40,539 nucleotides of DNA. It comes from a virus (taxonomy: Duplodnaviria > Caudoviricetes). Shown piece after piece: positions 2,312-40,539 of the stretch. The stretch spans positions 1 to 40,539 of the IMG/VR virus record IMGVR_UViG_3300048578_000440; one strand, 5' to 3'. The position numbers and the translations under genes are program-made. Below the pieces are notes generated by a model. That model ran no database searches, was not told the origin of the DNA, and was given only the letters and a program-made list of their open reading frames with translations. Each line of letters begins with the position of its first letter. Within the stretch, counting starts at the first letter, position 1.

Positions 2312-2548
2312 TTATTCGACCTGCAGCTGTTGCCAATTCACGCCCAAGGCTTCTGCGATCTTTTTGCGGGTCGCCACATCGGAATGCGCATCAGGGGCTT
2401 CCATCTGGGCAAAGGCCGAGACGGGGACTCCCAGTCGCTGGGCGACTTCATCCTGGGTCAACCCCAGGTATTCGCGCCAAGCCTGGATGAGACTGGCCCC
2501 GTCAAGGTGCAGTTCGGCGACTTCGAAGGGAATGGTCACGGTGTCCAT
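2312..2548 (-). CDS. XRE HTH protein, HigA-like antitoxin type; short, apparently lacking an N-terminal extension
   Basis: IPFEVA...SLIQAWREYLGLTQDEVAQRLGV..SAFAQME...KKIAEALG. Confidence 0.8.
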   Translation of the reverse strand: MDTVTIPFEVAELHLDGASLIQAWREYLGLTQDEVAQRLGVPVSAFAQMEAPDAHSDVATRKKIAEALGVNWQQLQVE

Positions 2549-2579
2549 GTGGGTACACTACGGGAGAATCCGCCAAAAA

Positions 2580-2921
2580 TCACAGCACGGCATCCCTCGC
2601 CGCCCTTTCGGCCGCATCGGCCACGAATTCGTTGAGGCTTTTGCCTTTGGCCCTGGCGGCGACGGCCAGAAGTCTATGGATTTCCGGAGACAGACGCAGC
2701 CGGAATTGCCCGGAGCAGGGCTTTTCAGGAGTTCTGCCTGCCTGGGCGCACAGGTCCAGATAATCCTCCACGGAGTCGGCCAGGGCTTGCCGCAGCTCCT
2801 CGACCGAGCGGCCGGAGAAATGAATCACATCCCGGATGCCTATTACCCGACCGTGGAATTCGTCGTCATCGGGAATGAAATCAAAATATCCGGTGAAGCC
2901 CTTGTAGGTCATGGTGTTCAT
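2580..2921 (-). CDS. hicB: HicB-family antitoxin (partial RNase H fold plus RHH), orphan
   Basis: N-terminus MTYKGF.G...DDDEFHGRVIGIRDVIHFSG.SVEELRQAL.DSVEDYL; C-terminus PEKPCSGQFRLRL.PEIHR....A....KSLNEFV (RHH). Confidence 0.88.
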   Translation of the reverse strand: MNTMTYKGFTGYFDFIPDDDEFHGRVIGIRDVIHFSGRSVEELRQALADSVEDYLDLCAQAGRTPEKPCSGQFRLRLSPEIHRLLAVAARAKGKSLNEFVADAAERAARDAVL

Positions 2922-3002
2922 CGTTATGGCCCTGGCGCTTCGGCCTGCACCCGATTTGGTGTCGAGGCGGCAACGAGTGCCCTGTTGGGGATGGCATATC
3001 GG

Positions 3003-3389
3003 CTATTGGCAGGCCATTTCACGCCTGGCGGCGCGGACCAGGAAAGCGGAGCGGTTGAGGCCGCGTCCTTTGGCGGCGCGGTCGATTTCCTCAAGTGTTC
3101 CGGCGGGAACCGTGATGTTCACCCGGACCGTGCGCTCATCCATGAACCCGAGATCCACATTGACCAAGGCCCACACGGCGTCCTTGTAAACCGGATCGTC
3201 CTTGTAGTGCTCCAGGCTGCTGGGAGCCGGCTTCTCGGAGGCGTCTTCAAGAATGAGTTCGACAGCTTCCTGGGTGTTGGCAAGAGCTTCTTCCAGGGTG
3301 TCGCCCGCGGTGTTGCAGCCGGGGATGTCCGGCAGGGTCACTCCGTAGGCCTTGCCTTCCTCAATGAAGACGGCGGCGGGAAAATACAT
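3003..3389 (-). CDS. hicB: HicB antitoxin cognate to the adjacent HicA
   Basis: YGVTLPDIPGCNTAGDTLEEALAN..EA motif and C-terminal RHH RVNITVP...LEEID......GLNRSAFL. Confidence 0.92.
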   Translation of the reverse strand: MYFPAAVFIEEGKAYGVTLPDIPGCNTAGDTLEEALANTQEAVELILEDASEKPAPSSLEHYKDDPVYKDAVWALVNVDLGFMDERTVRVNITVPAGTLEEIDRAAKGRGLNRSAFLVRAARREMACQ

Positions 3390-3619: not shown

Positions 3620-3629
3620 GGGTGGGTCC

Positions 3630-3889
3630 TTGACGCCCCCGGCCCGCCTCATGCACGTTTGGTCAACCAATTTTGTGAGGCGTCCTGCCGCCTTGATCCG
3701 GTCCCAAGCCGGAACAAAAGAGCGGGCTTTTTGCATTTGTCGCCCATGCGCCTCCCCTTTGGGGAAGGGCTCGTATTGGCGGCGGCATGACGTCCGGGTG
3801 TCCGCGAGGCCCCGGCCGTGTTCTGCGGGGGAGCGTCATGCCGTCGCCTTTTTTCGTGCCCAAATCCCAACAGAACGAGGTGCATCATG
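3630..3889 (+). repeat. Regulatory cassette copy 1 (promoter, leader, C4-like RNA and target) upstream of the antirepressor
   Basis: About 260-bp imperfect duplicate of 4250-4506 (offset 620). The block 3677-3749 is identical to 4297-4369. TTGACG at 3630. Confidence 0.9.
3778..3854 (+). ncRNA. C4/P4-CI-like antisense RNA, copy 1
   Basis: Closing stem GGCGGCGGCATGACG (3778-3792) pairs with CGTCATGCCGTCGCC (3834-3848) and is followed by T6. Internal hairpins are present. GTTCTG...GGGA is complementary to TCCC-AA-CAGAAC (3865-3876) at the antirepressor RBS. Confidence 0.65.
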
Positions 3890-4507
3890 ACCGGCCTTAT
3901 CCCCATCACTCCCGGCCAACTGGCCGGGGAACCTGCCCAGACCGTCAATGCCCGTGAGCTGCACGAATTCCTGGAAGTCGAAACCCGGTTCGACGACTGG
4001 ATTCGTCGTCGAGTCGAGGAGTACGGCTTTGCGGAGAACCAGGATTATGTGTGGTTTTCCTCAAAAATGAGGAAAACCCCGGAAGGCGGTCGTCCAGCCA
4101 AGGACTACCACCTGTCCATCGACATGGCCAAAGAGCTGGCCATGGTCGAAAAGACCGACAAGGGGCGGCAGTCCCGCCGTTATTTCATCGATTGCGAACG
4201 ACGGGCTAAGGCCGCAGTTGTCAATTTCTCTGCGCCAAGCGTTCGTCCCTTGACGCCCTCTGCCCGCCTCGGGCATGGTTGGTCTCCCAACCTTACGAGG
4301 CGTCCTGCCGCCTTGATCCGGTCCCAAGCCGGAACAAAAGAGCGGGCTTTTTGCATTTGTCGCCCATGCACCTCCCTTCGGGGTGGGGCAATGAATTGGC
4401 GGTATGACGTCCGGGTGTCCGCGAGGCCCCGGCTGCTCGTAAGGCAGGGGAGCGTCATGCCGCCTTTTTTATTGCCCCAATCCCAACCTTACGGAGGTGC
4501 GCCATGA
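3887..4507 (+). CDS. AntA/AntB-family antirepressor whose C-terminus reads through cassette copy 2 (Ash-like extension)
   Basis: AntA signature VNARELHEFLEV.TRF.DWI.RR..EYGF.ENQDY...GGRP.KDYHLSIDMAKELAMVEK..KG...RRYFIDCE. RBS GAGG before ATG 3887. The stop overlaps the next start (ATGA). Confidence 0.9.
   Translation: MTGLIPITPGQLAGEPAQTVNARELHEFLEVETRFDDWIRRRVEEYGFAENQDYVWFSSKMRKTPEGGRPAKDYHLSIDMAKELAMVEKTDKGRQSRRYFIDCERRAKAAVVNFSAPSVRPLTPSARLGHGWSPNLTRRPAALIRSQAGTKERAFCICRPCTSLRGGAMNWRYDVRVSARPRLLVRQGSVMPPFLLPQSQPYGGAP
4250..4506 (+). repeat. Regulatory cassette copy 2 upstream of rha, lying inside the antirepressor ORF
   Basis: TTGACG at 4250. The target motif TCCCAACCTTACG occurs twice (4285-4297 and 4481-4493). 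Confidence 0.9.
4398..4470 (+). ncRNA. C4/P4-CI-like antisense RNA, copy 2
   Basis: Closing stem GGCGGTATGACG / CGTCATGCCGCC followed by T6. Segment CGTAAGG...GGGA (4438-4451) is complementary to TCCC-AA-CCTTACG at 4285-4297 and 4481-4493. Confidence 0.7.
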
Positions 4508-5256
4508 ACAGTCTTTCCCCCAACCTGACCATCGTCGCGGGACGTCCGGTCGTTTCCAGCCTCACGGTGGCCGCGCATTTCGGCAAAGAGCACAAGAATG
4601 TTCTGCGGGATATCCGGGAACTCCTTGCCAGTTTGCCCGACGAACTGCGTGCGCTCAATTTTGAGCCCACGCAGATTGATGTACCCATGCCAGGTGGCGG
4701 TACCCGCAAAGACGCTGTCTACAACCTCTCCCGGGATGGCTTCACCCTGTTGGCCATGGGTTTTCGGGGTAAGCGCGCCCTGGCCTGGAAGATCCGCTAC
4801 ATCCAGGCTTTCAACGCCATGGAAGCCCGGCTCCACGAGAGGGTCGCGCCACCGGTCGCTTTGTCACATCCCGCCGAAAGCCCGTTGCTCGTCCTGGAAG
4901 GCGAACTGGCCCGCATCCGGGCCAACGTCGCTTTTTTCAAGGACATGGCCGTGGTGCTCAACACCCTGGCCTTCACCCGCGACGCCGACGCATTTTCCAG
5001 AAGCATGGCCGGCGCGCTGAGGGACATCGCCCAAAGCAGCAGCGACATGCTCGGGCGGGTCGCCGAGGACGTGGGCCAAGTGCGCGGCCGGACACTGGCA
5101 GCCGTCCAAACTGCCCTGGCCGTCGGTCTGGGCAGTCCGGCCGATGCCGCAGCACGCTCCGCCAAGGCAGCAAAAGCGGCCCGGGCGCGTTGGGACAAGG
5201 AACGGGACAAGAAAGCCGCCACTCCTAAAGGCAGGAAGGGCGGCGCCGTGCATTAG
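4504..5256 (+). CDS. rha: Rha-family phage regulatory protein
   Basis: VSSLTVAAHFGKEHKNVLRDI...YNLSRDGFTLLAMGFRGKRALAWKIRYIQAFNAME. Confidence 0.93.
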   Translation: MNSLSPNLTIVAGRPVVSSLTVAAHFGKEHKNVLRDIRELLASLPDELRALNFEPTQIDVPMPGGGTRKDAVYNLSRDGFTLLAMGFRGKRALAWKIRYIQAFNAMEARLHERVAPPVALSHPAESPLLVLEGELARIRANVAFFKDMAVVLNTLAFTRDADAFSRSMAGALRDIAQSSSDMLGRVAEDVGQVRGRTLAAVQTALAVGLGSPADAAARSAKAAKAARARWDKERDKKAATPKGRKGGAVH

Positions 5257-8329: not shown

Positions 8330-8463
8330 AAGATTAGAAGGAATTGAACGTGAATTCAGGGTGTTGTCGCGATATTGCCGAAATTGCCGGTTTCGAAGCC
8401 CTTGACGTTAGTCGTGTAAAGCTGAAAAATGCCATAAAACACGACGAAACGGAGGGCCAGGAA

Positions 8464-9057
8464 ATGACGCGCAACAACCACGCTCCGAAAGGCTCGGCCA
8501 TCGCGGTTGACCCGATCAAGAGCAAGAAGGCGCTCGGAACCATCGCCAAGCTGCTGTTCGACAAGCCGCGCGACCATGCGCTGTTCGTGGTCGGGATCCA
8601 CTCGGCCTTGCGGGCCAGCGACCTGCTGTCCCTGACCGTCGGCGGGGTCAAGGCCATCCTGGCCGATCCGGACGATGGCGACGTGGTGCGGGAGATCAAA
8701 ACCGGCAACCTGCGGCGGATCAGTGCCAACAAGCCCGTCAGGGAGGCCGTGGAGCGCCTTTTGGCCTCCAGGCCATACCAGGATGCGGATTTGCTCTTTC
8801 AGGGCAAACGGGGCCGTCTGACGACGTCCTGGCTGCGGCGCATGGTCATCGGCTGGTGCGAAGCCGTCAACCTGCCCGGCCATTACGGTTCGCACACGTT
8901 GCGGAAAACCTGGGGCTACCACATGCGCGTGACCTGCAACGTGGATATTCCCACGCTGATGGCCGTCTTCGGTCACGCGACGCAGAAGCAAACGCTCGAC
9001 TACCTGTGCATCCAGCCGGACGAGATCCGGTCAGTGTACGCCTTCGAGCTGGTGTGA
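8464..9057 (+). CDS. Short, catalytic-domain-only tyrosine recombinase (resolvase-like)
   Basis: RDHALF..GIHSALRASDLL (R), EIKTG (K), GSHTLRKTWGYH (HxxR), FGHA (H), TLDYL (Y). About 197 aa with no arm- or core-binding domain. RBS GGAGGG at 8451. Confidence 0.88.
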   Translation: MTRNNHAPKGSAIAVDPIKSKKALGTIAKLLFDKPRDHALFVVGIHSALRASDLLSLTVGGVKAILADPDDGDVVREIKTGNLRRISANKPVREAVERLLASRPYQDADLLFQGKRGRLTTSWLRRMVIGWCEAVNLPGHYGSHTLRKTWGYHMRVTCNVDIPTLMAVFGHATQKQTLDYLCIQPDEIRSVYAFELV

Positions 9058-26911: not shown

Positions 26912-28792
26912 ATGGCTCAGGGTTTTTTGGATGTCGACAATTCCTCGCAATTGGTCACCCAGGCCTTTTCTGATGCCGCCAGCAAAGCAAACTCGGCGTT
27001 TTCGGCGGCGACAGGGGCTATCGGGCAACTTGCCAATGGTCTGTCCAATTTTACTGTTCCGGATTCGGTTGTGTCCGTGGGCAATGTCTCGACGAACATG
27101 CAGGCGATACCAAGTCCGCCGCAGGTTCCTCGTCCGTCCGTGGATACTGTTTCAGTCGCCGATGCGCCTTCCCTTGACCGCCTGGAAATCCCTGCCGTGC
27201 AACTGCCGGTCTTCACGGCTGTTGCGCCCACGGTATCAATCCCCCAGATGCCGACTGTTGCCGAACCGGAAGATCCAGGACCCGCGCCGAATATTGACGA
27301 TGTCAGCCTGCCGAGCGATCCCGGCGTGGAACTGCCCACACCACCAGGGTTGCCGCAGGTGGAGCTGCCGTCCCTGGTTGATGTCGGGCTGCCTGTATTC
27401 GAGGGTGAGCGTCCCGGAAGGCCGAACATTGACGTGCCGGGCCGGTTGTTTGTCTACGAAGAGGGGGAATTCCGTTCGCCGCTCCAGGAAACCATTGAGG
27501 CAGAGATATACAACGGCCTGTTGTCTGGCGGCGACATTGTGTCCATTTCCGGCATTACAGCCGCGGTTGCCCAGGCCGAGTCCGTGGCGGCACGGACGTT
27601 GCGCATCGAGTTGGCTGCCATCCGCGACGGCTGGTCGGCACGGGGTCAGGACGGCCCAAGCGGCGCGGACAACGATAAGGAGTATCAAGCCAAACAGCGT
27701 TATGCGGATTCGGTCAATGAGGTCACAGCCCAGCTTGTGACCGAACAATGCCGTCTGACGGTGCAGCACCGCGAATTCTTAATGCAGCATGGAATATCCG
27801 CCGTGGGTCTGCGCCTGGAAGGGTTCAATCAGGCACAGGCCCGGGCGCTGGAAGCGGCGCACCATACGGCTGATTTTGGCTATCGCGTGGTGGACATCCA
27901 GGTGTCCGTCTACAATCTCCAGCTCGCCCAATACCAAGCCGACGCAGCCGTGTTTGAGGCCCGCATCCGGGCCGCAGGACTGGCTCTGGATGCTCGTCGT
28001 CTGGAGTTGGAACGGGCGCGGTTGGCCGGGGATTTGCGGAAGCAGGATATCGACGTCTATTTGGCCGAATGCCAGGCCCAGCAAGTTCGCGTTGAGATCT
28101 ACAAGGCGCAAATCCAGGGAGCCATCGCCAAACTTCAGGCGCAGTCTGAAAAAATCCGAGCCTTTGAAGCGAAAGTCGGGGCTTTCACCGCGCATATCAA
28201 CGCGATGGTGGCCCGCTATAACGCCTGGGGCACCCAAATTTCCGCCGAAAAAACCAAAGTGGACCTGTTCCAGGCCCAGGCGTCGGCTCACGCCACGGTG
28301 GTTGGCGCGGCGAAGGTCGCCGTCGACGCCCAGGCGGTTCAGGCGTCTGTCGTGGATTCGGGCAACCGTGGACAGATCGAGCTGTACCGGGCGGAGTTGG
28401 AGAAAGCCAAGGTTGAAATGCAGGGTATGATTGCTGCGGTTGACGCATCCGTCCGCATCTCCTCTGCCGAAGTCCAGGCCTATGAAGCCGCCGTGCATGG
28501 CGTGGCCGCATCCAATGAGAGTGCGCGTGGCATGGCGTCGATCCAGGTACAGCAGGAGTCGATCGTGGCAAACGCGGCCATAGAAACGGCGCGCATTGCG
28601 GTTGAGGCGGCCAAAGCCAAAGCCAGCGTGGCCGAACATGCACTGGCCGCTGCGGCCAGTACCGCGGCGCAATTGGCCGCGTCGGCCATGGCATCGCGTC
28701 ACGCGTCGGCCAGCGTCGGATTCTCTGGCGGCAACAGCAATTCGAGCAGCTTCAGCGAAGCCTACTCGCACGTCGAGCAAATCAGCGCCTAG
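26912..28792 (+). CDS. Putative internal virion / DNA-ejection protein
   Basis: Pro-rich N-terminal half and a long Ala/Gln coiled-coil C-terminal half; lies before the giant gene. Confidence 0.65.
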   Translation: MAQGFLDVDNSSQLVTQAFSDAASKANSAFSAATGAIGQLANGLSNFTVPDSVVSVGNVSTNMQAIPSPPQVPRPSVDTVSVADAPSLDRLEIPAVQLPVFTAVAPTVSIPQMPTVAEPEDPGPAPNIDDVSLPSDPGVELPTPPGLPQVELPSLVDVGLPVFEGERPGRPNIDVPGRLFVYEEGEFRSPLQETIEAEIYNGLLSGGDIVSISGITAAVAQAESVAARTLRIELAAIRDGWSARGQDGPSGADNDKEYQAKQRYADSVNEVTAQLVTEQCRLTVQHREFLMQHGISAVGLRLEGFNQAQARALEAAHHTADFGYRVVDIQVSVYNLQLAQYQADAAVFEARIRAAGLALDARRLELERARLAGDLRKQDIDVYLAECQAQQVRVEIYKAQIQGAIAKLQAQSEKIRAFEAKVGAFTAHINAMVARYNAWGTQISAEKTKVDLFQAQASAHATVVGAAKVAVDAQAVQASVVDSGNRGQIELYRAELEKAKVEMQGMIAAVDASVRISSAEVQAYEAAVHGVAASNESARGMASIQVQQESIVANAAIETARIAVEAAKAKASVAEHALAAAASTAAQLAASAMASRHASASVGFSGGNSNSSSFSEAYSHVEQISA

Positions 28793-28801
28793 GGGGCAGC
28801 C

Positions 28802-29584
28802 ATGCCTTGGAATCAATCGCTATTCGATGCATCGGTTCGGAAGAAGTACGAAATCCTGGGCCAGAACGCCGACTCGGACACGACCCGGGCCAATGCGACC
28901 GCCCAGGACGTGGCGCAGCGGCCGGGGATGCAGGCGGCGGCCGATGCTGCGGCCATGGAGCGGGCGCGGCTGGCTTCGCAGACACAGCTTGGCGCGGAGC
29001 AAATCCGGGGCGGCTTTGGTCTGCAGGAGCGAACCCTGGTCAATCAGGGCGCGGCCAACGTGGCCGGCATCCAGGGAAACTACGGCCTGCAGGAACGGAC
29101 CCTGGCCAATCAGGGTTCGTTGGCCGTGGCCGGCCTCGGCCTGGAAGGCGACAAGCTGCGGACACAGGCCATGATGCAGCCGCAGTATGGAGCCATTCCG
29201 AACAAAGACTATGACCCTCGTGAAAAAGGATCTGTTCCGTATTGGCAGTACGCCCAAAACCAGGCGGCCATGGACCGCGCCCCGGGCCTGCCGGGCGGGT
29301 TGTCCATGGGCACAAGCGTCGGCGGATTGCCGGGAGGCGGCGGGCTGGTCGCGCCGCCGGCACAGGCCCAGGCTCCGGCTGTTGGCGGGTTGCCGGGCGG
29401 ATCGTCGATTGCGCCGACGGCAGCGCCATCAAAAACGGTTTCGCGCTCGGATCGGATTGGCGACTTTGATTATGGCGCAAGGCTTGGCGGCGGGCTACCC
29501 GGACAGAATGTCCCGTTGCCGACTGTCCGTACGCCGCAGGAGGCGCTTCAGGATTCCAGGAAAAACCGCCGGTCGTATTGGTAG
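28802..29584 (+). CDS. Putative ejection (pilot-like) protein, Gly/Ala/Gln-rich
   Basis: Low complexity, with a 22-aa duplication GLQERTL.NQG...VAG (about 29018-29134). Confidence 0.6.
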   Translation: MPWNQSLFDASVRKKYEILGQNADSDTTRANATAQDVAQRPGMQAAADAAAMERARLASQTQLGAEQIRGGFGLQERTLVNQGAANVAGIQGNYGLQERTLANQGSLAVAGLGLEGDKLRTQAMMQPQYGAIPNKDYDPREKGSVPYWQYAQNQAAMDRAPGLPGGLSMGTSVGGLPGGGGLVAPPAQAQAPAVGGLPGGSSIAPTAAPSKTVSRSDRIGDFDYGARLGGGLPGQNVPLPTVRTPQEALQDSRKNRRSYW

Positions 29585-29596
29585 GATGGTGCCCGC

Positions 29597-32500
29597 ATGG
29601 CTGTTGATCTGATCAAGTACCGCGCCGAGAATGCCGGCTTTTACGGCCAGTCTTCCCTGGCCGATGTGGCCGCCGATCTGCACGAGCGCAGCGGTTCGGC
29701 CAAGGCCGGGGTGGCGTTTGAGGATTTCGCGCGCCAAAACGGCTTTGACGCGCAGATAGCCCAGGAAACGCAGCCGAAGCCGCAGCCGCAACAGCAGCCC
29801 GGGTATGGACTTCCGGGCGGTTCGGTGACGGCCGGGGATTACGCCCGGAGCATCGGCGTCGGCCTGGACCAGTTCGGCCAGGTGCTTGGCCGGGGTATGC
29901 AGTGGGTGGGCCTGGACCGCGCCGGCAAGGCCGTCGAAGGCCTCTACAAGGAGCGCGAGACGGCCACGCGCGGGCAGCAGTTCGGAGCCTACAAGGCCGA
30001 GATGGCCAAGCCGTTTGTGCAAGAACGGCCGGACGGCGGCGGCATGTTCGGCTACGGCCTTGGCCCGGGCGTGACGTCGCCGGCCAAAATCCTTGGCACC
30101 ATCGTGGAGAGCGTCCCGGCCATGGCCGCTGCCGGCGGTCCGGCCGTGGCGGCGACCCGGGGCCTGATCGGCCTGGGCCTCAATGCCGGCGTGGCCGGTA
30201 TTGTCGGGTCCGGCCTGGGCGAAGGTGTGATTGGCGGCCTGTATGCGGCCAAGGAAGGCGAGGATCAAATTCTGGAAGCGCCGGATGGCGTGTTGCAGCA
30301 GCATCCGGACTATCAGCAGGCCCTGGCCGCCCTGCCGGCCGACATGCCCGAGGCCGAGCGCCAAGCGTCGGCCAAGGCGTCGGTGGCGCGGGGCGAGGCG
30401 CTGCGCAGCGGCTTGATAGCCGGCGGGGCCACGGCGGTGCTTGGCGCGCCGTCCGGACACTTCCTGGGCAAGTCCATCGGCGGCGAGACCGGCAGGACGC
30501 TGGCCCGCACCATCGGCAAACAAGCCGTGCTGGAAGCCGGCCAGGAAGCCAGCCAGAGCGCGGTGGAGCAGCTTGTCCGCAACGACGCGGCCCGGCGCTA
30601 CATCAACCCGGACCAGTCCATGGGCGAGGGCGTGGCCGAGGCCATGGTGGGCGGCGCGATCACCGGCGGCGTCATGGGCGGCGGCCTGGGCGGGTTTTCC
30701 CACAACCGGGCGGCGTTGCAGTACCGCCAGGACTTCCAGGCGGAAACAGCCAAAGCCATCACGGACGGCTCTGTGGCCGGGCTGGCTGACGATGACCTGG
30801 GCCGGGCCTTCCAGATTGCCGACGGTCTGTACCGCGAAAACCCCGATGAGGGGTTGCAGCAGGTGTTGCTGGGCCTCAATGCCGAGCAGTTCCGGCGGCA
30901 AGGCGCGGCGCGCGGTTTCCCGCTCAACGAATTTCTGGCCGACGACGACGCGGCCCGGGCCGCTGCGGCGCAGCAGGCGGCGCAGCCCCAGGAGGCGCCC
31001 GGCCTCCCCCCCGAGGCTGCGGCCGGGCCGGCCGGCCCGGATCGGGGGGCCGAACTGACGGCGCTGTCCAAGCGGGAATTAAACGACCTGGCTGCCGGCC
31101 TGGGTATTGCCAAGCCGGGACGGATCAAGCGTGATGAGCTGGTGGCGTCGGTGCTGCAGGCCGAGGACGCGGCCCGGCGCTGGAACGATCCTGAGGCCGT
31201 GGCCGCCCGCTACCAGGAGGCCCATGCCGCGCCGTTCCCGGGCCAAGTCGATGGCTTCCTGGAAGGCGTGGCCCCGGTCGCGCTGTCGCAGCAAGCGCCG
31301 GCCGCCGCGCCGGAATCGGGGCAGGCGGCTCCGGACCGGGCGGCGGAACTGTCCGGGCTGGCCTATTCCGAGTTGCGCGACATGGCCGCGTCCCTTGGCG
31401 TGGAAAAGCCCGGGAGGCTCAAGCGCGCCGCTCTGGTACCGGCCATTGTGGCGGCCGAGGAACAGGCCCGGCACTTTTACGATCCGGCCAACCTGGATGC
31501 GCGCTACCAGGAAACCCATGCCGCGCCGTTCCCGGGCGGACTGGATGGCTTTCTGGACGGTGTTGCGCCGGTGGGCCAGCCGCAGCCGGCCGAGGGCAGG
31601 GCCTCGCGCAAACGCCAGCCCAAGGCGGCGGCCGAGCAAGAACCGGCCCAGGCAGGGCAAGCCGCCGCGCCGGAATCGCTGGCGCCGTCGATGGCCCAGG
31701 CTGCCGGACCCACGGGAGAAATTCCGCTGGTCGAAATCGGGGCCACGCCGGAAGCGGTGCAGGAGGCGGAACCGGAAGCGCAGTCCGAGGCGCGCCCGGC
31801 CCTGGTGGAGCAGACTCCGGCCGGGGTGCTGCCGACCGGGGAAATTCCGTTGACGGCGGTGGGCGAGACGCCGGCGGCCGGTGAAAAAGTTGTGGCAGAT
31901 TTGCCACAAAATAAAGGGCAGGAGCCGGGCCGGGACGTTGCTGGATACCCTGCGGTCGAGACTGGACAGCCCCAGGCCGATATGCAGGAGGCGCAAGCGC
32001 CGCCGGCGGCCGAAGACCTCAAGGCCCGGAGCAAGCGGGAACTGAACGACTTGGCCGTGTCCCTGGGGATTGAGCGGCCGGTGGAGATTCGCCGGGATGA
32101 TCTGGTGGGGCGGATCGGGCAGGCGCGGCAGGAGGCGGCGGCCGGATCGGTGCAAGAGCAGCCGGGTGCGGCTGGCGCGCCGCAGACGGCCAAGGTCTGG
32201 TCTGGCGACACGTTGCGGGAGGTGCCTGTTGTTGAGCACGACGGCGTCAAAACCGTCAACGTCATGGGCCAGGGGATGCCGCCGCGCTATGCCGTTTTAA
32301 ACGCTCTTGCCGGTTCAGATGAGCACCAGATTTCGCAGTACAGCGGCAACACCCCGGCGGAAGCGGTCGCCGCCGCGAAACGGCCGCCGGAACCGCCGCA
32401 TCCCATGAATGCCGCCACCCGGGGGCGGGCGTTGCAGGCCATGGCCCCGGACCAGCAAAACGCCCTGGGCAAGGTCCTTGGCATCAAGCCGGGCAGGAAG

Positions 32501-35500
32501 TCGCGGCTGGGGTTCCTGGAAGCGATTTCCGATACGCCGGAACTGAAGCTGCGGGCGGCGTATGACACGGTTGTCGGCGAGGCCGGGCAGCAGGCCGAGG
32601 CGGACAAGTCTCCGGGCGTGGCCACTGGCGAAGCGCAAGGTGATGCCCAGGATCAGGCGGCTGTACCGCCCGGGGACGTCGGGGCTGTTGCCGAGCCAGC
32701 GGCAGAAGTGCCTGCGCAGTCCGAGCCTTCGTCAGCCGATGCTGCGCCGAAGGAAGAGGCCCGGGATGAGCCGGCAGCCGAAGCCGAACAAAACGAGTCC
32801 GCTGCCGTCGAAAGCCGGCCTGAAGAAGCGGCTGGTGCGGCGACCCCGGAGCAAAGCGAAAAGATCGGTCTCGCCCTCGGGGAGAAGATCGGCGGCTCCC
32901 GCAAAGACACGGCTGCGCCGACCGGCCCTCGTGTGCGTTTGCCCGGGAAAGACGACTCCGTGCCTGCCTGGAAAAAGCGGTTCATGGCTGTCCAGGTCAG
33001 TGAAACCGGTTTCCGTTCCGGCGAAGACAAAATCTATTGGTCCATTGCCGACCAAAAGGGCCTGTTACGGACCGGACGATTCAAGTTCGACTCCAAGGAG
33101 GAGGCCGAAGCCGCCATCCCGCTGGCGGCCGTATCCTTGAAGCACCGGGTCACGAAGCGCGGCGAGGCCTGGGAAATTTATCGGAAGGTCACGGACAGAA
33201 AGACCGTAGTCATCAAGGACGGCTTCGCCACGGAGGAAGACGCCAAGCGGTACATGGCCGAACATGCCGAAGACATCCTCAACACCAAGACCGGGTTTGG
33301 CGAGGAAATCCTGGTCAGACCGGAAAAGGTGTTCCGGAAGGGTGCGCCCCGGCGCGAGGGGCCGGCGAAGGGGCAGGACTTCCTGGATGCCTTTGGCTTC
33401 CGTGGCGTGGAGTTTGGGGAGTGGAACGACCAAGACGAACGGCAGGAAGTGCTCAACCATGCCTATGACGGCCTGCTTGATCTGGCCGAACTCCTCAATG
33501 TTCCGCCCAAAGCACTTTCCCTGAACGGGGATCTGGCCCTGGCCTTTGGCTCACGCGGGCGCGGGCTTTCCAGCGCCAAAGCCCATTACGAGCGGGATTA
33601 CGGCGTCATCAACCTGACCAAGCTGACCGGGGCCGGCTCCCTGGCTCATGAGTGGTACCATGCGCTGGATCACTACCTCGGGCGACAGGATACAAAGGCG
33701 TCGTCTGAAAAGGTGGAGAACAAGCGTGGCGATCGGGTTTTCGCCGCCAGTGACGCACCTTCGCGGGACTATTTGAGCCACGGGGCAAGCCGCAAATCCC
33801 AGGTGCGCGAAGCGTTGCGGGCGGCTTATGAAAAGCTGCTTGGCGACATCGCCTACAAGGCGGAACAGTACAAGGAAGACACAGAAAAGGCCGAGCAGTT
33901 TGTCAGTCGCGCCCGGGGCTATCTGGAAAGGAATCTGAAGGACATCCGTACCGGCCTTGCCCAGGATGCGCAGTGGGGAAGAAAGCGCGCGCCGGCCAAG
34001 GCCGGACAGTTGGAACGGTTCGACGCCCTGGCGGAACAGCTTTTGAGCGGCGACAATCTGGCCCTGGAGATGCGCAGCAATGAGGCCGGGGGGCGGCAGC
34101 GCAGCCGGTTTGGCTCCTACCGTTCCAGCAACGACATTCTTGACGGCCTTGCGGCGATCTACAAGGAGGTTCGCGGCCGCAGTGGATTCAATGCGGAACG
34201 GACAGGCCCGTTTAATTCGCTGGCAGCCAATGTCCAGGACTTCGCCAGACGGGCGAAGATGCTGGAAGACGCCAGAAGCAAGACGGAAAAGACCAAGCAG
34301 ATTCCCACGGAGTACCGGCGCGCCGCCTATCTCATGGACCAGGGCAGGACGTCGGACTACTGGAGCGAACCCCACGAAATGGCCGCCCGGGCGTTTTCCT
34401 CCTACGTGGAAGACAGGGTGGCCCAGGATGATGGCCGCAGCGATTTTCTTGTCTACGGCGCAAACAACGCCATGCTGGAATACCGGCTGGTCAACGTCCG
34501 GCCGTTCCCTGAAGGGGCGGAACGCGAAGCCATCAACGCCGCCTTCGACACCTTCTTTCAGACGGTCAAGACGAAGGAGACGGGCCGGGGCGTGGCCATG
34601 TTCCAGAGAGAGGACGGATCAGAGGCTCCTGCCTCCCCCATCACCCGGGCCGTGGCGGCCGAGTTGCGCCAGGGCATTTCGCAGTTTCCGGCCTTGCGGG
34701 GCATCGTGGACGTGTACCAGTCCGAGGCCGACATGCCGGCGGATCTGCGCGAGGCGGTGGAGGATGCCGGGGTGTCCGGGCGGTTCCACGGGGTCTATGA
34801 CGCCGAGACGAAGCGCATTGCCCTGGTGGCCGGGAACATCCCCACGGTCAAGGCAGGGCAGACGGCGTTTGTACAGATGCTGTTGCGCCATGAAGGCCGC
34901 CACGCCGGGTTGGACCGGGTATTGGGCGGCGTCCGGGAGCGCGAAGACTACATGGCCAGGGCGGCCCAGGCGATACCCCGGGAGGTGACGCGCTGGCTCA
35001 CGCGCCACGGCATGGAATCCAACCGCCGCAACCGGGCCGAGGCAGCCGAGGAAATCCTGGTGTCCTGGGCCAAGGACGGCACGGTGCATCGCGCCTTGGA
35101 CCGGCTGCTGTCGAAAATCGCCGCCTGGGTGCGGTCGATCTTCCCGACGCTGGAACTGACCCGGGCCGAACTGCGGCAACTGCTGGCCCAGGCCGACGAC
35201 TTTGTGGACGGCAAAGGTCTGGATTTCATCGCGCCGCCCGGGCAGCCGTTTTCTGCCGCTCCGGCGTTTTCGCGCGGGGAAGGGGCTTCCTGGGCGCAGC
35301 AGGTGGATGATTTTCTGGGCAATCGGTTTCGTCCCCACGAGCGTCTCGACCTTGGCGGAACGCCGCCGGTGATCGGGCTGCTTGGCGGACATGATCTGCC
35401 CCTGCAAATGACCCAGGGGAAAGCGAATAAAATACTGAAGGGGGCGGATGCAGGCGGGAAACACGGGGTTTCACCGGAAGTGCTGAAGCAGTTGCCACAA

Positions 35501-38500
35501 GCGTTGGAGCGACCTGTCGTTGTCCTGAAGTCTGCCACCTGGGCCGATAGTCTGGTGCTGGTGACGGAGTTGCCGCATCAGGGTTCATTCCTAGTCGCAG
35601 CAGTACATCTGAATGTTCGGGAAGGGCGTGCGGAGATCAACGAGGTCGCAAGCGTCCATGCCCGGGGGACACAGCCGCAGTGGGTATCAAACCAGATTCG
35701 TGATGGTGGGTTACTCTACAGGGATAAAACGAAAGTCCCTGGTTGGCAGAGATCTTTCGGGCTGCAATTGCCCACAGAGATGCCAACCAGGGACAAGCGA
35801 AAGATATTCACGGAAGTTGATCTCGTCAAGTACGAACAGGGGCTGCCCCAGAAAGGAAGTGGCCCCCGCTTCGCCCGCACCGGCGACCTGGCCGGCGTCC
35901 CGGACGAAAAGCGCGACGTGGCCACCTGGCTCAAAGACGAAGCCTCGGCCAATGTCCGCTCCATCCTGGCCGGGGTGCATGGTCTGTCGGAAACCGGGGT
36001 GCTGGGCAAGATGGTGCGGTCGCCGGAATACTGGCAGCAGCCGGTGCTCAAGCGCCTGTATGAGACGTTCCGGGACCGCACCGACCGCGCCCATGAACTG
36101 CTGCACCAAGCGTTCGATGTGGGCGACGGCCGCACTATCATCCAGGAAGCCAAGGACGTCCTCAAAGACCCGAAGCAGCGCGAGATTTTGAATGCGGGCG
36201 TGGACCACGCCGACGTCAACGAGGTCGGGCCGGAGGCCATGGAGACGTGGTTTGCTGAGCATGGGGCCAACGAGGCCACAATTGGGCTGTGGCGCATCAT
36301 GCGTGAACGCTACGACATGCTGCTGGACGAACGGCTGGCCTCCTACCGCAAGCTCATCGACAAGGCGCGCAGCGGCTATGAGCGCAAGATCGTGCGGCGG
36401 TTGATCGACGCCGGCATCCCGGCCGACGCGGCCAAGGCTTTCGACGCGGCCGGCTACAACTCCGACAAGACCCTGGCTGACGAACTGGCCCCCTACGCCG
36501 ATGAGGTGAAGGCCGTGGTGGCCGCTGCCCGCAAGGCCGGGGTGACCATCAAGGGCCAACTTTCCGACGTGAAGCTCCACGACGAAAACGGCACCTCTTT
36601 CAGCTTCGCCGAGATGGTGGAAAAAATGGGCCAGTTGCGGGGCTTTTATGCGCCGCGTCTGCGCGAACAGGGCGACTATGTGGTGCGCGGCCAGCGTACT
36701 GGCGCGGACGGGGATATCGAGCGGTTCCGGGCGCACAAGGAATGGCGCAAGTCGGCGGAAAAGCTGCGACTGGAAATGCGGCGCGCCGGTTGGGACATGG
36801 AGCCGGTGGGTAAGCTGGACAAGCTGCCCGAGGCCACCCAGGGGATTCTCAAGACCCTGGAGCTGGCCAAGACGGTGGAAAGCGCGGTCAACCAAGTGGG
36901 CGAGGACGTGGACGCCGGACTTGTTCAAGAGATACTTGAGACATTGGCTGACGAGGTGAAGGCGCGGGGCTTCCGGTCGCAGTCGATCCGGCGCAGCGGC
37001 CGGCACGGCGAGGTGGTGCAAGGCTATTTCAAGGACGCGGTGGAGCGGTTTGCCCGGTATGCCGGGTCCACGGCCTACGGGCTGGCCAAGATGGAAGCGG
37101 CCGAGAAGGCGGCCAAGGTGCTTTTCGGCACTGCCGGCGCGCCGGGCCTGGATATCAAAAAGGAGCGCGACACGTACCGGCTGGCCGTGGACTATCTGGC
37201 TGAGAACCTGCGCAACGCCGAGTCCGGGGACCGGGTTTTTGCCCTGGCCAAGTCGGTTGCCTCGCTCAAATACCTGGGCCTGAATCCCAAAAGCGCGTTG
37301 GTCAACCTTTCGTCCATGGCCACGTCGGTGCCGGCGGCGCTCCATGCCTATGCCATGCAGGGCAAGGGCGGCTGGTCCAGGGTGGGCCGCGAGATCGCCC
37401 GGAGCATGTACGATTACCTGGGCCGCATGACCAAAAAATGGGGCCGGTTTACGGCAGATGAACAGCGGTTTCTGGACGAAATCCGGCGGGAATCCCTGGA
37501 TGATCCGCAGTTCGCCCGGGAGGCGCTTTCCGTCTACCGCGACACGGCCGGCCAGGGCTGGTCCTGGCTCATGGGCAAGTCCATGGCCCTGTTCGGGGCC
37601 ACGGAGCAGCTCAACCGGGGGGCGACGCTCTTGGCCGGCTACCGGCTGGCCCGGGCCGGCGGGGCGGATCATGCCACGGCCGTGGCCCGGGCCAGGGAGA
37701 CGTCGGACCGGGCGCACGGCGTCTATGACCGGGCCACGCAACCGGCCTGGACCTGGGGCACGTCCATCGGGGCGCGGGTCGGGCAGGCGTGGTACGTCTA
37801 CAAGAAATACGGTCACAACTATTTGCAGCTCGTGCATGAGCTGTTTGCCAAAAAGGATTGGCAGGCGGCCACGTTTGCCTTGGCTGCGCCGGCTGTGCTG
37901 GGCGGGTTGGGCGGCCATGTGCTGACCTCGCTGGCTAAAGCGTTGATGGCGGCCGGCGGCGGCGACGATGACCCGGAAAAGTGGCTGTATGATTTCCTGG
38001 GCAAAAACCTCGGCGGCGAGGCCGAAGACCTGGCCCGGTTCGGGCTGCTGGGGCTGGCCACCGGCGCGGACCTGTCCGGCAGCCTGGGGACCATGATCGA
38101 CATGCCGGATACGTGGTCCGACGTGCTTGGCCCCATGGGCGGCCTGGGCAAGGACATGCTTACGGCTGTGGGCTATCTGGCCGGCGGCCAGCCCGGGCGG
38201 GCAGCGGAAAAGGTGTTGCCGTCGGGCGTGGCCAAGGTGCTGCAGGCCGTGCGCGAATCGGACCAGGGCGTGACCACGGGCAAGAACTATCCGGTCCTGG
38301 GCGAAGACGGCAAACCGCTCAAACCGTCGCGCGGCGAATCCGTGGCCAAGGGGCTGGGGTTCCGGCCGCTGCGCGAGGCCCGGGCCAGGGACCGCACCAG
38401 CGAGGCCATTACCGAGGAAAAGCGTTTTGGCGACCGCCGGGATGTGATCTACGCCCGGTTCCGGGCCTTTGCCCTGGACGGCGGCCAGGATGCCGACGAA

Positions 38501-39022
38501 CGGCAGGACTTGGTTGCGGCCGTGGCCGAGTACAACCAGGACGTGGCCGAGGCCGGGCTGACCGGCCGGGTGTCGCCCATCACCAAGGAATCGCTGCTGC
38601 GCCAGACCGAACGGCTGGCCCGGCCCACCAAGCGGGAGCAGGCGCGCCTGAGCGGCCCGGCCGGCCGCGCCGAGACCGCGCCGGCCGTGGCACCTCTGGA
38701 TGCCGGCGACATCGAAGACCTGTCCCACCCGTATTATCAGGTGCGGCGCACCTATCTGGATGCCAAGGGCCGCTATGACGCCTTGCGCGATGCCGGGGAT
38801 ATGGAAGGCGCCATGACCGTGCGCAGCGAAACCCGGCTGCCGCGCCTGCGCGCCCTGGTCGGCCGGGTGCAGTCGATCCATGAGGATATGGCCGGGCTGC
38901 GCAAGCTGCGCCTGGATGATGCCGCGAAAGCCGAGCGCATGGAGCTGTTGCGGGATCGGGAGCGGCGGGAAATGGACCGGGCGGTGCGGGTCTGGGGCGT
39001 TCTGGCGGCGAACGGGGAGTAG
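29597..39022 (+). CDS. Giant large polyvalent protein (internal virion protein)
   Basis: 3141 aa. Gly/Ala-rich membrane-like N-terminus; Rho-N/HeH-like repeats; GEKIGGSRKD (LPD5-like); FGFRGVEFGEW...SLAHEWYHALD...YWSEPHEMAARAF (LPD1/zincin-like); second HEGRH zincin-like motif; LPQALERPVVVLKS (MuF-C/PBECR-like); YAPRLREQGDY (PLxRFG-like) helical C-terminus. Confidence 0.88.
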   Translation: MAVDLIKYRAENAGFYGQSSLADVAADLHERSGSAKAGVAFEDFARQNGFDAQIAQETQPKPQPQQQPGYGLPGGSVTAGDYARSIGVGLDQFGQVLGRGMQWVGLDRAGKAVEGLYKERETATRGQQFGAYKAEMAKPFVQERPDGGGMFGYGLGPGVTSPAKILGTIVESVPAMAAAGGPAVAATRGLIGLGLNAGVAGIVGSGLGEGVIGGLYAAKEGEDQILEAPDGVLQQHPDYQQALAALPADMPEAERQASAKASVARGEALRSGLIAGGATAVLGAPSGHFLGKSIGGETGRTLARTIGKQAVLEAGQEASQSAVEQLVRNDAARRYINPDQSMGEGVAEAMVGGAITGGVMGGGLGGFSHNRAALQYRQDFQAETAKAITDGSVAGLADDDLGRAFQIADGLYRENPDEGLQQVLLGLNAEQFRRQGAARGFPLNEFLADDDAARAAAAQQAAQPQEAPGLPPEAAAGPAGPDRGAELTALSKRELNDLAAGLGIAKPGRIKRDELVASVLQAEDAARRWNDPEAVAARYQEAHAAPFPGQVDGFLEGVAPVALSQQAPAAAPESGQAAPDRAAELSGLAYSELRDMAASLGVEKPGRLKRAALVPAIVAAEEQARHFYDPANLDARYQETHAAPFPGGLDGFLDGVAPVGQPQPAEGRASRKRQPKAAAEQEPAQAGQAAAPESLAPSMAQAAGPTGEIPLVEIGATPEAVQEAEPEAQSEARPALVEQTPAGVLPTGEIPLTAVGETPAAGEKVVADLPQNKGQEPGRDVAGYPAVETGQPQADMQEAQAPPAAEDLKARSKRELNDLAVSLGIERPVEIRRDDLVGRIGQARQEAAAGSVQEQPGAAGAPQTAKVWSGDTLREVPVVEHDGVKTVNVMGQGMPPRYAVLNALAGSDEHQISQYSGNTPAEAVAAAKRPPEPPHPMNAATRGRALQAMAPDQQNALGKVLGIKPGRKSRLGFLEAISDTPELKLRAAYDTVVGEAGQQAEADKSPGVATGEAQGDAQDQAAVPPGDVGAVAEPAAEVPAQSEPSSADAAPKEEARDEPAAEAEQNESAAVESRPEEAAGAATPEQSEKIGLALGEKIGGSRKDTAAPTGPRVRLPGKDDSVPAWKKRFMAVQVSETGFRSGEDKIYWSIADQKGLLRTGRFKFDSKEEAEAAIPLAAVSLKHRVTKRGEAWEIYRKVTDRKTVVIKDGFATEEDAKRYMAEHAEDILNTKTGFGEEILVRPEKVFRKGAPRREGPAKGQDFLDAFGFRGVEFGEWNDQDERQEVLNHAYDGLLDLAELLNVPPKALSLNGDLALAFGSRGRGLSSAKAHYERDYGVINLTKLTGAGSLAHEWYHALDHYLGRQDTKASSEKVENKRGDRVFAASDAPSRDYLSHGASRKSQVREALRAAYEKLLGDIAYKAEQYKEDTEKAEQFVSRARGYLERNLKDIRTGLAQDAQWGRKRAPAKAGQLERFDALAEQLLSGDNLALEMRSNEAGGRQRSRFGSYRSSNDILDGLAAIYKEVRGRSGFNAERTGPFNSLAANVQDFARRAKMLEDARSKTEKTKQIPTEYRRAAYLMDQGRTSDYWSEPHEMAARAFSSYVEDRVAQDDGRSDFLVYGANNAMLEYRLVNVRPFPEGAEREAINAAFDTFFQTVKTKETGRGVAMFQREDGSEAPASPITRAVAAELRQGISQFPALRGIVDVYQSEADMPADLREAVEDAGVSGRFHGVYDAETKRIALVAGNIPTVKAGQTAFVQMLLRHEGRHAGLDRVLGGVREREDYMARAAQAIPREVTRWLTRHGMESNRRNRAEAAEEILVSWAKDGTVHRALDRLLSKIAAWVRSIFPTLELTRAELRQLLAQADDFVDGKGLDFIAPPGQPFSAAPAFSRGEGASWAQQVDDFLGNRFRPHERLDLGGTPPVIGLLGGHDLPLQMTQGKANKILKGADAGGKHGVSPEVLKQLPQALERPVVVLKSATWADSLVLVTELPHQGSFLVAAVHLNVREGRAEINEVASVHARGTQPQWVSNQIRDGGLLYRDKTKVPGWQRSFGLQLPTEMPTRDKRKIFTEVDLVKYEQGLPQKGSGPRFARTGDLAGVPDEKRDVATWLKDEASANVRSILAGVHGLSETGVLGKMVRSPEYWQQPVLKRLYETFRDRTDRAHELLHQAFDVGDGRTIIQEAKDVLKDPKQREILNAGVDHADVNEVGPEAMETWFAEHGANEATIGLWRIMRERYDMLLDERLASYRKLIDKARSGYERKIVRRLIDAGIPADAAKAFDAAGYNSDKTLADELAPYADEVKAVVAAARKAGVTIKGQLSDVKLHDENGTSFSFAEMVEKMGQLRGFYAPRLREQGDYVVRGQRTGADGDIERFRAHKEWRKSAEKLRLEMRRAGWDMEPVGKLDKLPEATQGILKTLELAKTVESAVNQVGEDVDAGLVQEILETLADEVKARGFRSQSIRRSGRHGEVVQGYFKDAVERFARYAGSTAYGLAKMEAAEKAAKVLFGTAGAPGLDIKKERDTYRLAVDYLAENLRNAESGDRVFALAKSVASLKYLGLNPKSALVNLSSMATSVPAALHAYAMQGKGGWSRVGREIARSMYDYLGRMTKKWGRFTADEQRFLDEIRRESLDDPQFAREALSVYRDTAGQGWSWLMGKSMALFGATEQLNRGATLLAGYRLARAGGADHATAVARARETSDRAHGVYDRATQPAWTWGTSIGARVGQAWYVYKKYGHNYLQLVHELFAKKDWQAATFALAAPAVLGGLGGHVLTSLAKALMAAGGGDDDPEKWLYDFLGKNLGGEAEDLARFGLLGLATGADLSGSLGTMIDMPDTWSDVLGPMGGLGKDMLTAVGYLAGGQPGRAAEKVLPSGVAKVLQAVRESDQGVTTGKNYPVLGEDGKPLKPSRGESVAKGLGFRPLREARARDRTSEAITEEKRFGDRRDVIYARFRAFALDGGQDADERQDLVAAVAEYNQDVAEAGLTGRVSPITKESLLRQTERLARPTKREQARLSGPAGRAETAPAVAPLDAGDIEDLSHPYYQVRRTYLDAKGRYDALRDAGDMEGAMTVRSETRLPRLRALVGRVQSIHEDMAGLRKLRLDDAAKAERMELLRDRERREMDRAVRVWGVLAANGE
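31035..31575 (+). repeat. Approximately 294-bp tandem duplication inside the giant gene
   Basis: PDR.AEL..L...EL...A..LG..KPGR.KR..LV......E..AR...DP....ARYQE.HAAPFPG..DGFL.GVAPV occurs twice at both DNA and protein level. Confidence 0.85.
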
Positions 39023-39031
39023 GGGGACGGT

Positions 39032-39682
39032 ATGTCGTTATCGGACCGCATTGAATACCGGACGTACAAAATCACTCTGATTGAGCCGATATTGGGCTCG
39101 TTGCCGTCGCAACGGCAGGTGTACCAGGATTTGGTGGCGGCCAGGGCTCCGGAACCCGACGTGGAGGGGGCGGAGGAGGCTGCCATGTTGCCGGAGGGCG
39201 CGGATGAACGCACGACCGTGTTTCTGCGCAACCAGGACGGGTGGTGTTCCATCCTGGATTACCAGTTCTTCGGGTTTCTGAAGGAGGCCGGCAATACGCT
39301 CAAGGATATTGTGCAGCATGAAGCCATGGTCAAACGGACAAAAACCACGAAACAGGGCATTGCCGCCCTGCGCAACAAGCTGACCCGGTTTCTCTTTTGC
39401 GGCCCCCGGATTATTCCGCTGCAAAAGGAACCGAACGGGATCTTCCGGAGGCCGCTGCGGCGGATCACCAAGGAGGGGCCTATGAGCTGCATCGCCACCT
39501 CCGAGATCATCAACGCCGGGGTGTCCTTTGACGTCTGGATCGGGCTTTTGCCGCACGGCGAGGTGCAATGGGGCGTTGTGGAGCAGCTTTTGGAATATGG
39601 TCAGATTAAAGGGCTTGGTCAGTTTCGGGGCGGGGGATTTGGTCGGTTCGCCTTTGACCTTGTCTCCCAGGGTGCAATGTAA
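39032..39682 (+). CDS. Stand-alone RAMP / Cas7-like (Csf2/Csm3-like) RNA-binding protein
   Basis: RAMP hallmarks in the expected order: beta1 YKITLIEPILGSLP; helix ILDYQFFGFLKEA (equivalent to IPGSSLKG.LR); SEIINAGVSFDVWI; C-terminal Gly-rich loop GLGQFRGGGFGRF. Confidence 0.8.
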   Translation: MSLSDRIEYRTYKITLIEPILGSLPSQRQVYQDLVAARAPEPDVEGAEEAAMLPEGADERTTVFLRNQDGWCSILDYQFFGFLKEAGNTLKDIVQHEAMVKRTKTTKQGIAALRNKLTRFLFCGPRIIPLQKEPNGIFRRPLRRITKEGPMSCIATSEIINAGVSFDVWIGLLPHGEVQWGVVEQLLEYGQIKGLGQFRGGGFGRFAFDLVSQGAM

Positions 39683-39683
39683 A

Positions 39684-39736
39684 AGCTAGGTCCGGTATCG
39701 TTGCGTGCCGTGACGCGCGGCTCTATCGATCGAGCC
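39684..39736 (+). ncRNA. Candidate guide-like RNA: eight 5-nt VGY-NN units plus a 3' hairpin
   Basis: AGC-TA GGT-CC GGT-AT CGT-TG CGT-GC CGT-GA CGC-GC GGC-TC (39684-39723), closed by stem GGCTC/GAGCC (39719-39736). It begins 1 nt after the RAMP stop codon. Confidence 0.6.
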
Positions 39737-39762
39737 CTTCAATCTGGCCGTAGGATGGCTGT

Positions 39763-40539
39763 ATGGACCATGTGGTGCTGTTTGATTGCCATGGGCTCAA
39801 GGCCCGGCTCAGCCCGACGCAGTGCAGGGCGAACCGGACCCGGCCGGTGTCGTCTTCTCTGGCGAATCTGCCGACGCGGCCGATGGCCTGCCTGTCCTGC
39901 ACGCAATGGCATGAATTTGATCCGCCGGCGAATGTGACAGACCCGGCCGAACTGGCCCTGGCCGAGACCCTGGCCACGTTGTGGCCCGACATTGATGAGG
40001 GCAGGCTCGGGGTCAAGCATATCCTGACGGCCTATAACCGGCGGGTGATGCCGGAATTGCGCAAACGCCGATCCCTGCTGATGGCGGACTGGCTGGTCAT
40101 GCTCGGCTTCCGGGTGCTCCACCAGGAACAGTTCCAGGGTGTGAGCGGCTTGCGCTGCCTGTGGGTGGATTCGCTGGTGGAAGGATTCGTCCGGGAAAAG
40201 GGATTTGCCGTGCTGCAGCGTACCGATGTTGCGGCCCTGGATCGTTTGCTGGGGGTGGTCGGCTTGAAGCAGGACGCGCCGCTGCCAGAGGAAGAGCCGG
40301 AGATATCGGAAGAGCGTGAGGCGGCTGAGCCGGCGGCCACGGAGGAAGCGGCAGCGGTTGCACAGCCTTTTGTCCGGTCCAAACCATTGGCCGGCGCTGC
40401 TCCCTGCCCCGAATGCCTGTTTTTCAGGCCGATGCCGACGTATCATGCCGGCGTTGAAGGGATACGCCTGTGCTGGGCGGACGCCACCTTGTGGGAATTC
40501 GCCTGCTTCAAGCCCCGTCAGGAGGATATGGCATGCTGA
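39763..40539 (+). CDS. Hypothetical Cys-rich (putative Zn-binding) protein
   Basis: N-terminal C..C..CxxC (FDCHG...TQC...ACLSC), acidic linker, C-terminal CPEC...C...C; ends at the last base of the window. Confidence 0.65.
   Translation: MDHVVLFDCHGLKARLSPTQCRANRTRPVSSSLANLPTRPMACLSCTQWHEFDPPANVTDPAELALAETLATLWPDIDEGRLGVKHILTAYNRRVMPELRKRRSLLMADWLVMLGFRVLHQEQFQGVSGLRCLWVDSLVEGFVREKGFAVLQRTDVAALDRLLGVVGLKQDAPLPEEEPEISEEREAAEPAATEEAAAVAQPFVRSKPLAGAAPCPECLFFRPMPTYHAGVEGIRLCWADATLWEFACFKPRQEDMAC

Follow-up and report, generated by a model that had tools for sequence, protein, structure and literature searches.

We propose, with a probability of roughly 0.7, that a temperate phage carries a VIPR system with a single guide against a conserved gene of a gene transfer agent (GTA)-like cluster fixed in Solidesulfovibrio, and that this system likely blocks transcription of the distal cluster genes during assembly. 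The phage is represented by a 40,539-nucleotide virus record, which is analysed here at its full length (the window). The proposal draws on five results computed here: the RAMP fold of the protein, the 5-nt repeats, the guide-target match with its controls, the synteny of the cluster and the purifying selection on it. By its fold, RNA and code, the system belongs to a known kind, the VIPR systems; this name, which the original prediction had given, is in print (10.64898/2026.04.26.720920, 10.64898/2026.04.26.720927). What is new is a clade-fixed short guide against a vertically inherited host element, which was not found in the VIPR literature searched. The novelty first suggested, a minimal single-guide variant with CGY/GGY triplets, does not hold, as YNNNG variants, single-vrRNA loci and staggered arrays have already been described (10.64898/2026.04.26.720920).

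Table 1. Positions of the VIPR features in the window and of the targeted element in the genome of strain DCME (G001).
Feature	Position	Strand	Basis
Phage's own paralogue of the targeted gene (phrog_10969, 32% identity)	26912..28792	+	
Large polyvalent virion protein, 3141 aa, directly upstream of vipr	29597..39022	+	Context
vipr gene (single-RRM RAMP protein, 216 aa)	39032..39682	+	AF2 fold, Foldseek, VIA, weak SUSP1 Vipr profile similarity
Conserved stretch over the vipr stop codon, likely 5´ boundary of the vrRNA	39674..39683	+	Inferred
vrRNA repeat tract, 8 NGY/NN units	39684..39723	+	Period-5 scan; one-base-skip pattern TANCCNATNTGNGCNGANGCNTC
Conserved non-periodic 3´ tail of the predicted vrRNA (core motif 39729-39737)	39724..39754	+	Clade comparison
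Candidate vap (accessory) gene; its 258-aa product has an alpha/beta core flanked by two Cys clusters	39763..40539	+	Clade conservation
Two-locus GTA-like element (cluster and terminase-regulator locus)	G001:C1:4622908-4640443 and 28880-35988		

The vipr gene and its genomic setting

The start codon of vipr lies 9 nt past the stop codon of the gene for the 3141-aa virion protein, and vipr thereby stands last among the structural genes, as in the original prediction. The protein contains the RAMP motifs in the expected order: PILG at residues 19–22, E158..G163..F166, and the loop GLGQFRGGGFGRF at residues 194–206. Seven residues (G22, P25, G194, G196, Q197, G204 and F206) are invariant in 28/28 Vipr homologues. 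The AF2 model (pLDDT 90.4) adopts the RRM/RAMP fold that had been set as a test, with type VII Cas7 and Csm3 as the top Foldseek matches (E 4.5e-8), and comparison with Csm3 in VIA gives a Z of 11.6 and an rmsd of 4.1 over 159 aligned residues. Vipr shares the RRM core, the G-loop and the thumb with Cas7, Csm3 and Csf2 of class 1 CRISPR-Cas. However, the identity to these proteins is 11–15%, the RNA is built of 5-nt repeats instead of being a repeat-spacer crRNA, and no cas family was found among the 40 window ORFs scanned against PHROGs, in agreement with the original prediction, in which no other cas gene was recognized. Pfam and PHROG searches with the 216-aa protein returned no family.

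The sequence kinship of this protein to SUSP1 Vipr is weak. SUSP1 Vipr (36pp_D) is matched with an E-value of 0.58, below Cas7 and Csm4 in the profile ranking, and hhalign gives a probability of 45 and an E-value of 2e-4 over the C-terminal 76 columns, with 33 identical columns in the alignment. The assignment to VIPR therefore rests on the fold, the RNA architecture and the target rule. W178 and R179 of the SUSP1 G-loop, which hold G2 and Y3, align with F198 and R199; D177, which reads G1, aligns with Q197, in an alignment of low identity. A glutamine at the G1-contact position would be in keeping with a free first triplet base. The clade of this protein may be among the 667 systems of 10.64898/2026.04.26.720920, one homologue being in nr.

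The original prediction regarded vipr as a solo gene, which is probably wrong, as a Cys-rich ORF that is conserved in the clade follows it (Table 1). This ORF has 11 homologues, is located after vipr in L001–L007 and in G282, and has an apparently disrupted counterpart in G001. It belongs to no family in the search made and shows no homology to the vap1-like protein tested, and its model has a low-confidence fold (pLDDT 57) with only weak winged-helix-type matches (E above 1). We treat it as a candidate accessory gene of the system.

The remainder of the window contains an integrase gene (176-1453), replication genes, and terminase, portal and capsid genes. The closest named Vipr homologues (87% identity) are found in Solidesulfovibrio, including a prophage of strain DCME (G001), so Solidesulfovibrio is the inferred host genus. 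The early region (2315-3389, minus strand) encodes two HicB-family antitoxins and HTH regulators. A second, short tyrosine recombinase gene (8344-9057, plus strand) immediately precedes the terminase gene and is retained at 80–83% by the prophages of G001 and G282. Two direct repeats are present, one in the antirepressor region (3628-3904 and 4248-4520, 83% over 281 nt) and one in the large virion gene (31159-31278 and 31453-31572, 78% over 122 nt). The G001 VIPR prophage (G001:C1:2754000-2771000) has apparently lost the greater part of the structural genes that lie from portal to vipr, and its accessory gene seems disrupted, yet its vipr and guide are intact.

The repeat tract and its predicted guide target

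Eight consecutive NGY triplets, seven of which are SGY, start at 39684, 39689 and so on to 39719. This run is the longest of the window on both strands, and 0/60 dinucleotide shuffles of the window reach eight units. The periodic tract predicted behind the stop codon is thereby confirmed for the eight units from 39684, but it stops near 39723, the stretch 39724-39754 being non-periodic. Period-5 tracts near homologues, which had also been set as a test, are common: at least seven of eight period-5 GY slots were found within 400 nt at 51/80 viral homologue loci, compared with 0/133 control windows. In distant relatives, including L005, L006 and L213, the arrays are longer, and their guides are separated by one-base phase shifts. 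The conserved stretch over the vipr stop codon resembles these shifts and is thus the likely 5´ boundary of the vrRNA. Long arrays in which one-base phase shifts recur accompany many distant Vipr homologues (L008–L080), and some of these arrays lie 5´ of the gene.

The tail motif is found in 11/12 clade loci examined and is absent from L006. The predicted vrRNA tail has a folding z of −0.19, with covariation no higher than in shuffles. A hairpin that pairs unit 8 with the tail was considered on account of one compensatory change and rejected, as it does not stand out from shuffles (247/500). No Rfam match was found.

The 14 NN bases of units 1–7 are identical in 9/9 tracts, one of which is probably a duplicate record, and the triplets at units 2, 6 and 8 differ between these tracts; the unit-8 dinucleotide also differs among kin. 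Over the same phages, the third codon positions of vipr show 53–59% identity in the four pairs computed. No sequence difference was found within 39684-39723 among the matches listed from contigs of four public data sets. This pattern points to selection on the guide, with units 1–7 carrying a fixed specificity.

The system shares with published VIPR systems a phage-borne single-RRM RAMP protein with a G-loop, the lack of any CRISPR array noticed, an adjacent period-5 tract with a conserved tail, a one-base skip on the wobble position and the absence of a self-target. A typical vrRNA has 9–16 YNNGG repeats, and the search threshold used in that work was 4 units (10.64898/2026.04.26.720920). The tract here has eight units, 9–16 being a typical range and not a hard criterion. 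The first triplet base is free here (A, C or G), with Gln197 at the position of SUSP1 Asp177, the G1 contact.

The target search followed the published one-base-skip rule, in which the code is aligned to wobble positions (10.64898/2026.04.26.720920). The last base of the pattern was set to Y, since sister tracts end in TT. The one-skip pattern of the window guide matches 15/16 positions in G001, with the host site at G001:C1:4626477-4626499. With the Y-ended pattern, perfect matches occur in 22/401 host-family genomes, 18 of which belong to the 25 Solidesulfovibrio genomes. All 22 sites end in TT, so the score is 15/16 for the window guide and 16/16 for the guides of the sister phages L002 and L004. 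In every case the site is the same, codons 590–597 of one 639-aa gene, the guide is complementary to the coding strand, and the skipped bases fall on codon position 3 (wobble). The 22 matches are orthologues of one site and not 22 independent tests, so permutation of the dinucleotide order is the fairer test.

Several controls were applied. With at most one mismatch, the guide pattern is found in 50/401 genomes and the reversed pattern in 18/401; other skip rules give 0/25 (0-skip) and 1/25 (2-skip) genus genomes. Among the one-mismatch family matches, 1/30 loci checked (G161) lies in the target gene, and recurrent ones starting with TG lie outside it. A permuted dinucleotide order attains 15/16 in 2/1500 trials over 160 kb of G001. 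Extrapolated from these permutations, a 15/16 match anywhere in a 5-Mb genome has a chance of a few per cent, so the weight of the match rests on where it falls and on the related locus L213.

The Vipr of L213 is 60% identical to that of the window, and its guides differ from the window guide. One guide of L213 matches 14/14 at codon 541 of the same gene by the triplet-rule parse and, when extended through degenerate triplets, 21/22 in 11 genomes. Another L213 guide matches 13/14 at codon 388 in two genomes, and both have the same orientation as the window guide. Across 151 family genomes, the L213 guide matches in four genomes, always at the coordinates of the target gene, and the control in none. 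Setting the last position of the window guide to Y and extending the L213 guide were both choices made with the target already known.

The site is not uniformly matched within the genus. G243, G040 and G182, all of the genus and with the cluster intact, reach only 13/16 to the window guide, as does G151, and G161 reaches 15/16. A related prophage in G243 (G243:C1:2777900-2806000; L259, L260), with a large virion protein 76% identical, has no vipr-vrRNA-accessory cassette behind the gene for that protein. The host site has drifted to 13/16 in this genome; the absence of the cassette is a single case, which could reflect loss after target escape or chance.

Self-targeting is not apparent. The guide matches at most 12/16 in the window and at most 13/16 in five related phage records; under skips of 0–3 bases, nothing exceeds 13/16 save the tract itself under the 3-skip rule. 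The equivalent site in the phage's own paralogue (28700-28723) matches only 11/16. The lysogens G001 and G282 carry both the system and its target, so no lethal effect is implied.

For the guides of L005, L006 and L007, no convincing targets were found, the best being 13/14 or 14/16, and the longest of these guides matched 0/5 genomes. One L005 guide reaches 13/14 at G118:C1:3856381-3856400, in a gene adjoining the target gene, and 12/14 in G173, G070 and G151, complementary to the coding strand and with the skip on the wobble position. Other 13/14 matches of this guide lie elsewhere, and the cluster gene remains only a candidate target. Exact scans of viral contigs with two guide endings returned 6 and 7 matches, none homologous to cluster or window genes; all 13 were rejected as targets and treated as chance.

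The chromosomal element with the predicted target

The target gene is located within an 18-kb cluster of portal, capsid, adaptor, head closure and tail-type genes (Table 1), several of which are homologous to the structural genes of the window (31–76% identity). The gene order and the host flanks of the cluster repeat in G134, G213, G377, G228, G292 and G282, and also in G270, of which one side was examined. The sister genus genome G118 has the cluster with different flanks. The capsid gene is present at 83–100% identity in 23/25 Solidesulfovibrio genomes; in the two others, the target gene lies on short contigs. Close orthologues of the target gene are found in 8/151 family genomes. The cluster genes have dN/dS values of 0.04–0.40 and no stop codons, and their dS ranks like that of the flanking host genes. 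By its synteny and sequence evolution, the cluster is under purifying selection and vertically inherited.

A second locus contains a TerL-TerS gene pair, a Mor-type activator and a CI-like (HTH-S24) repressor, and is syntenic in 4/4 genomes examined (G001, G134, G213 and G377); in G118, it adjoins the cluster. No integrase or replication module was found in the 19–21 ORFs scanned, nor by BLAST of window genes against the cluster regions. A structural cluster with a separate, syntenic terminase-regulator locus looks like a gene transfer agent, and by this anatomy the element looks domesticated. Like the gene transfer agents RcGTA, BaGTA and Desulfovibrio Dd1, as they are described, it has clustered structural genes of phage origin, is inherited vertically under purifying selection and is spread over more than one locus with dedicated regulators. 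Its TerS has 191 residues with a Terminase_2 domain, whereas the TerS predicted for Dd1 has 125. The literature search found no published gene transfer agent in Solidesulfovibrio or in one related species. GTA and Desulfo terms do not occur in the VIPR papers 10.64898/2026.10.15.759431 and 10.64898/2026.10.21.760802, and Desulfo does not occur in the supplement text of 10.64898/2026.04.26.720920. The two-locus element of Solidesulfovibrio and sister genera is apparently undescribed.

Two other identities of the element were considered and rejected. The target was first read as a second prophage, a reading that was dropped after the synteny across genomes was seen. A phage satellite was dismissed in view of the flanks fixed genus-wide, the presence in 23/25 genomes and the dS that tracks host genes. 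The idea that the element is devoid of the internal ejection proteins of the phage was also abandoned: none are found in the cluster regions, but each is present in 1/5 genomes, and the genome search for these proteins had overlooked a 28% homologue that was found by a later search.

The F5 satellites targeted by the type II VIPR of SUSP1 are reported as mobile, with an integrase and without capsid, portal or terminase, and their VIPR target is a recombinase (10.64898/2026.10.15.759431). In contrast, the element here has portal, capsid and tail genes, a separate terminase locus and fixed flanks, with no integrase seen alongside, and the targeted gene is of virion type. The two cases are alike, as far as the SUSP1 work is described there, in that the guide reads codon positions 1 and 2 of a conserved gene and the structural proteins of the targeted element are homologous to those of the phage. 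Productive infection by SUSP1 is reported to require its VIPR (10.64898/2026.10.15.759431). The VIPR targets given in 10.64898/2026.04.26.720920 and 10.64898/2026.10.15.759431 include satellites, prophages, other VIPR loci and REP elements, whereas here one guide is fixed across a phage clade and its target is a vertically inherited chromosomal element.

A prophage of G213 has a capsid gene 74% identical to that of the domesticated element. The same prophage contains a second, SUSP1-like VIPR (G213:C1 about 741869-743500; L198:11869-13480), with a Vipr 33% identical to that of SUSP1, a vap1-like gene recognized by eye and five GGY arrays of 9–13 units. One of its guides matches 17/20 inside its own prophage region, and the others have no clear target.

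Mode of action and alternative explanations

By analogy with the published systems, Vipr would coat the RNA with one subunit per repeat, and the NN bases would pair with the coding strand, every third target base being skipped. Repression would be exerted through DNA binding, as in the SUSP1 and P. fulva work. The vrRNA is presumably made from the late transcript, since no promoter-like site for it was found. Binding at codons 590–597 of the 639-codon gene would act as a transcription roadblock, which may also cut off the four genes that follow, one of them tail-fibre-like. Since vipr stands last in the structural run and the element repressor is of the self-cleaving type, VIPR and the element are likely both active at induction; the element would be co-induced with the prophage through its CI-like repressor. 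The gain for the phage would be that homologous virion parts of the element, which might otherwise mis-assemble into phage particles or compete with them, are avoided. Such avoidance of cross-assembly or competition, predicted here, would parallel SUSP1 against its satellite. Repression of a competing element or of host genes, as originally suggested, is thus borne out computationally with one specific predicted target.

We also raise, more tentatively and at less than even odds, the idea that the GTA-like element is an anti-phage weapon of the host, co-induced with the prophage, whose homologous parts spoil or hijack phage particles, and that the phage clade has fixed a guide against it genus-wide.

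Other explanations of the match place the action elsewhere. The guide could in reality be directed at a mobile relative of the element, either a phage or a satellite, and the chromosomal match would then be a side effect of protein motif conservation. The published targets cited above include satellites, prophages and other VIPR loci, and mobile relatives of the element exist, such as the G213 prophage. We consider this unlikely: the exact scans of viral contigs gave no match homologous to cluster or window genes and none at all for the L213 guide, and the prophage-borne homologues in G213 and G243 reach at most 12/16 and 16/22. It is quite unlikely that the complex acts on the mRNA of the element instead of its DNA, by blocking translation or destabilizing the transcript. 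All three well-matching guides are complementary to the coding strand, and SUSP1 VIPR is reported to pair with ssRNA in vitro (10.64898/2026.04.26.720927). However, a single orientation for three guides has a chance of 1 in 4, other VIPR clades target both strands (10.64898/2026.04.26.720920), and with RNA the filament assembly described in 10.64898/2026.04.26.720927 is incomplete, the triplex needing DNA.

The good matches lie in the distal part of the cluster and not at its start or in the regulators, phage and element share one structural protein at 76% identity, and the G001 VIPR prophage apparently lacks most structural genes. These observations would suit a phage that tunes the element, silencing only the distal tail genes and borrowing or tolerating the capsid, portal and adaptor products. 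This seems very unlikely to us, as the phage of the window has its own portal, capsid and tail set and the case for tuning is built on only three known sites. A decayed, functionless array with a chance match is an extremely improbable explanation. The tract contains fewer repeats than the published range, some of its triplets are not GG, and neither its fold nor its covariation reaches significance, but its NN bases are invariant among phages with synonymous sites about 55% identical, the matches listed from the four public data sets do not differ within it, and L213 converges on the same target gene. We therefore retain the reading of a single phage guide directed at the GTA-like cluster.

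Why hosts keep gene transfer agents and domesticated phage clusters is described as a long-standing open question (PMC11841831). That this guide is conserved, and that a distant relative independently directs other guides at the gene, is evidence of a cost that the cluster imposes on the phage, and singles out a target gene with which the role of the cluster can be tested. The very short natural guide (7–8 units, with a relaxed first base) offers material for defining the minimal VIPR code. The finding extends VIPR from conflict between viruses to conflict between a virus and a domesticated host element. If the weapon reading is true, VIPR guides would be a readout of domesticated viral elements that act as defence, and no RNA-guided counter-defence against a gene transfer agent would have been known before this one.
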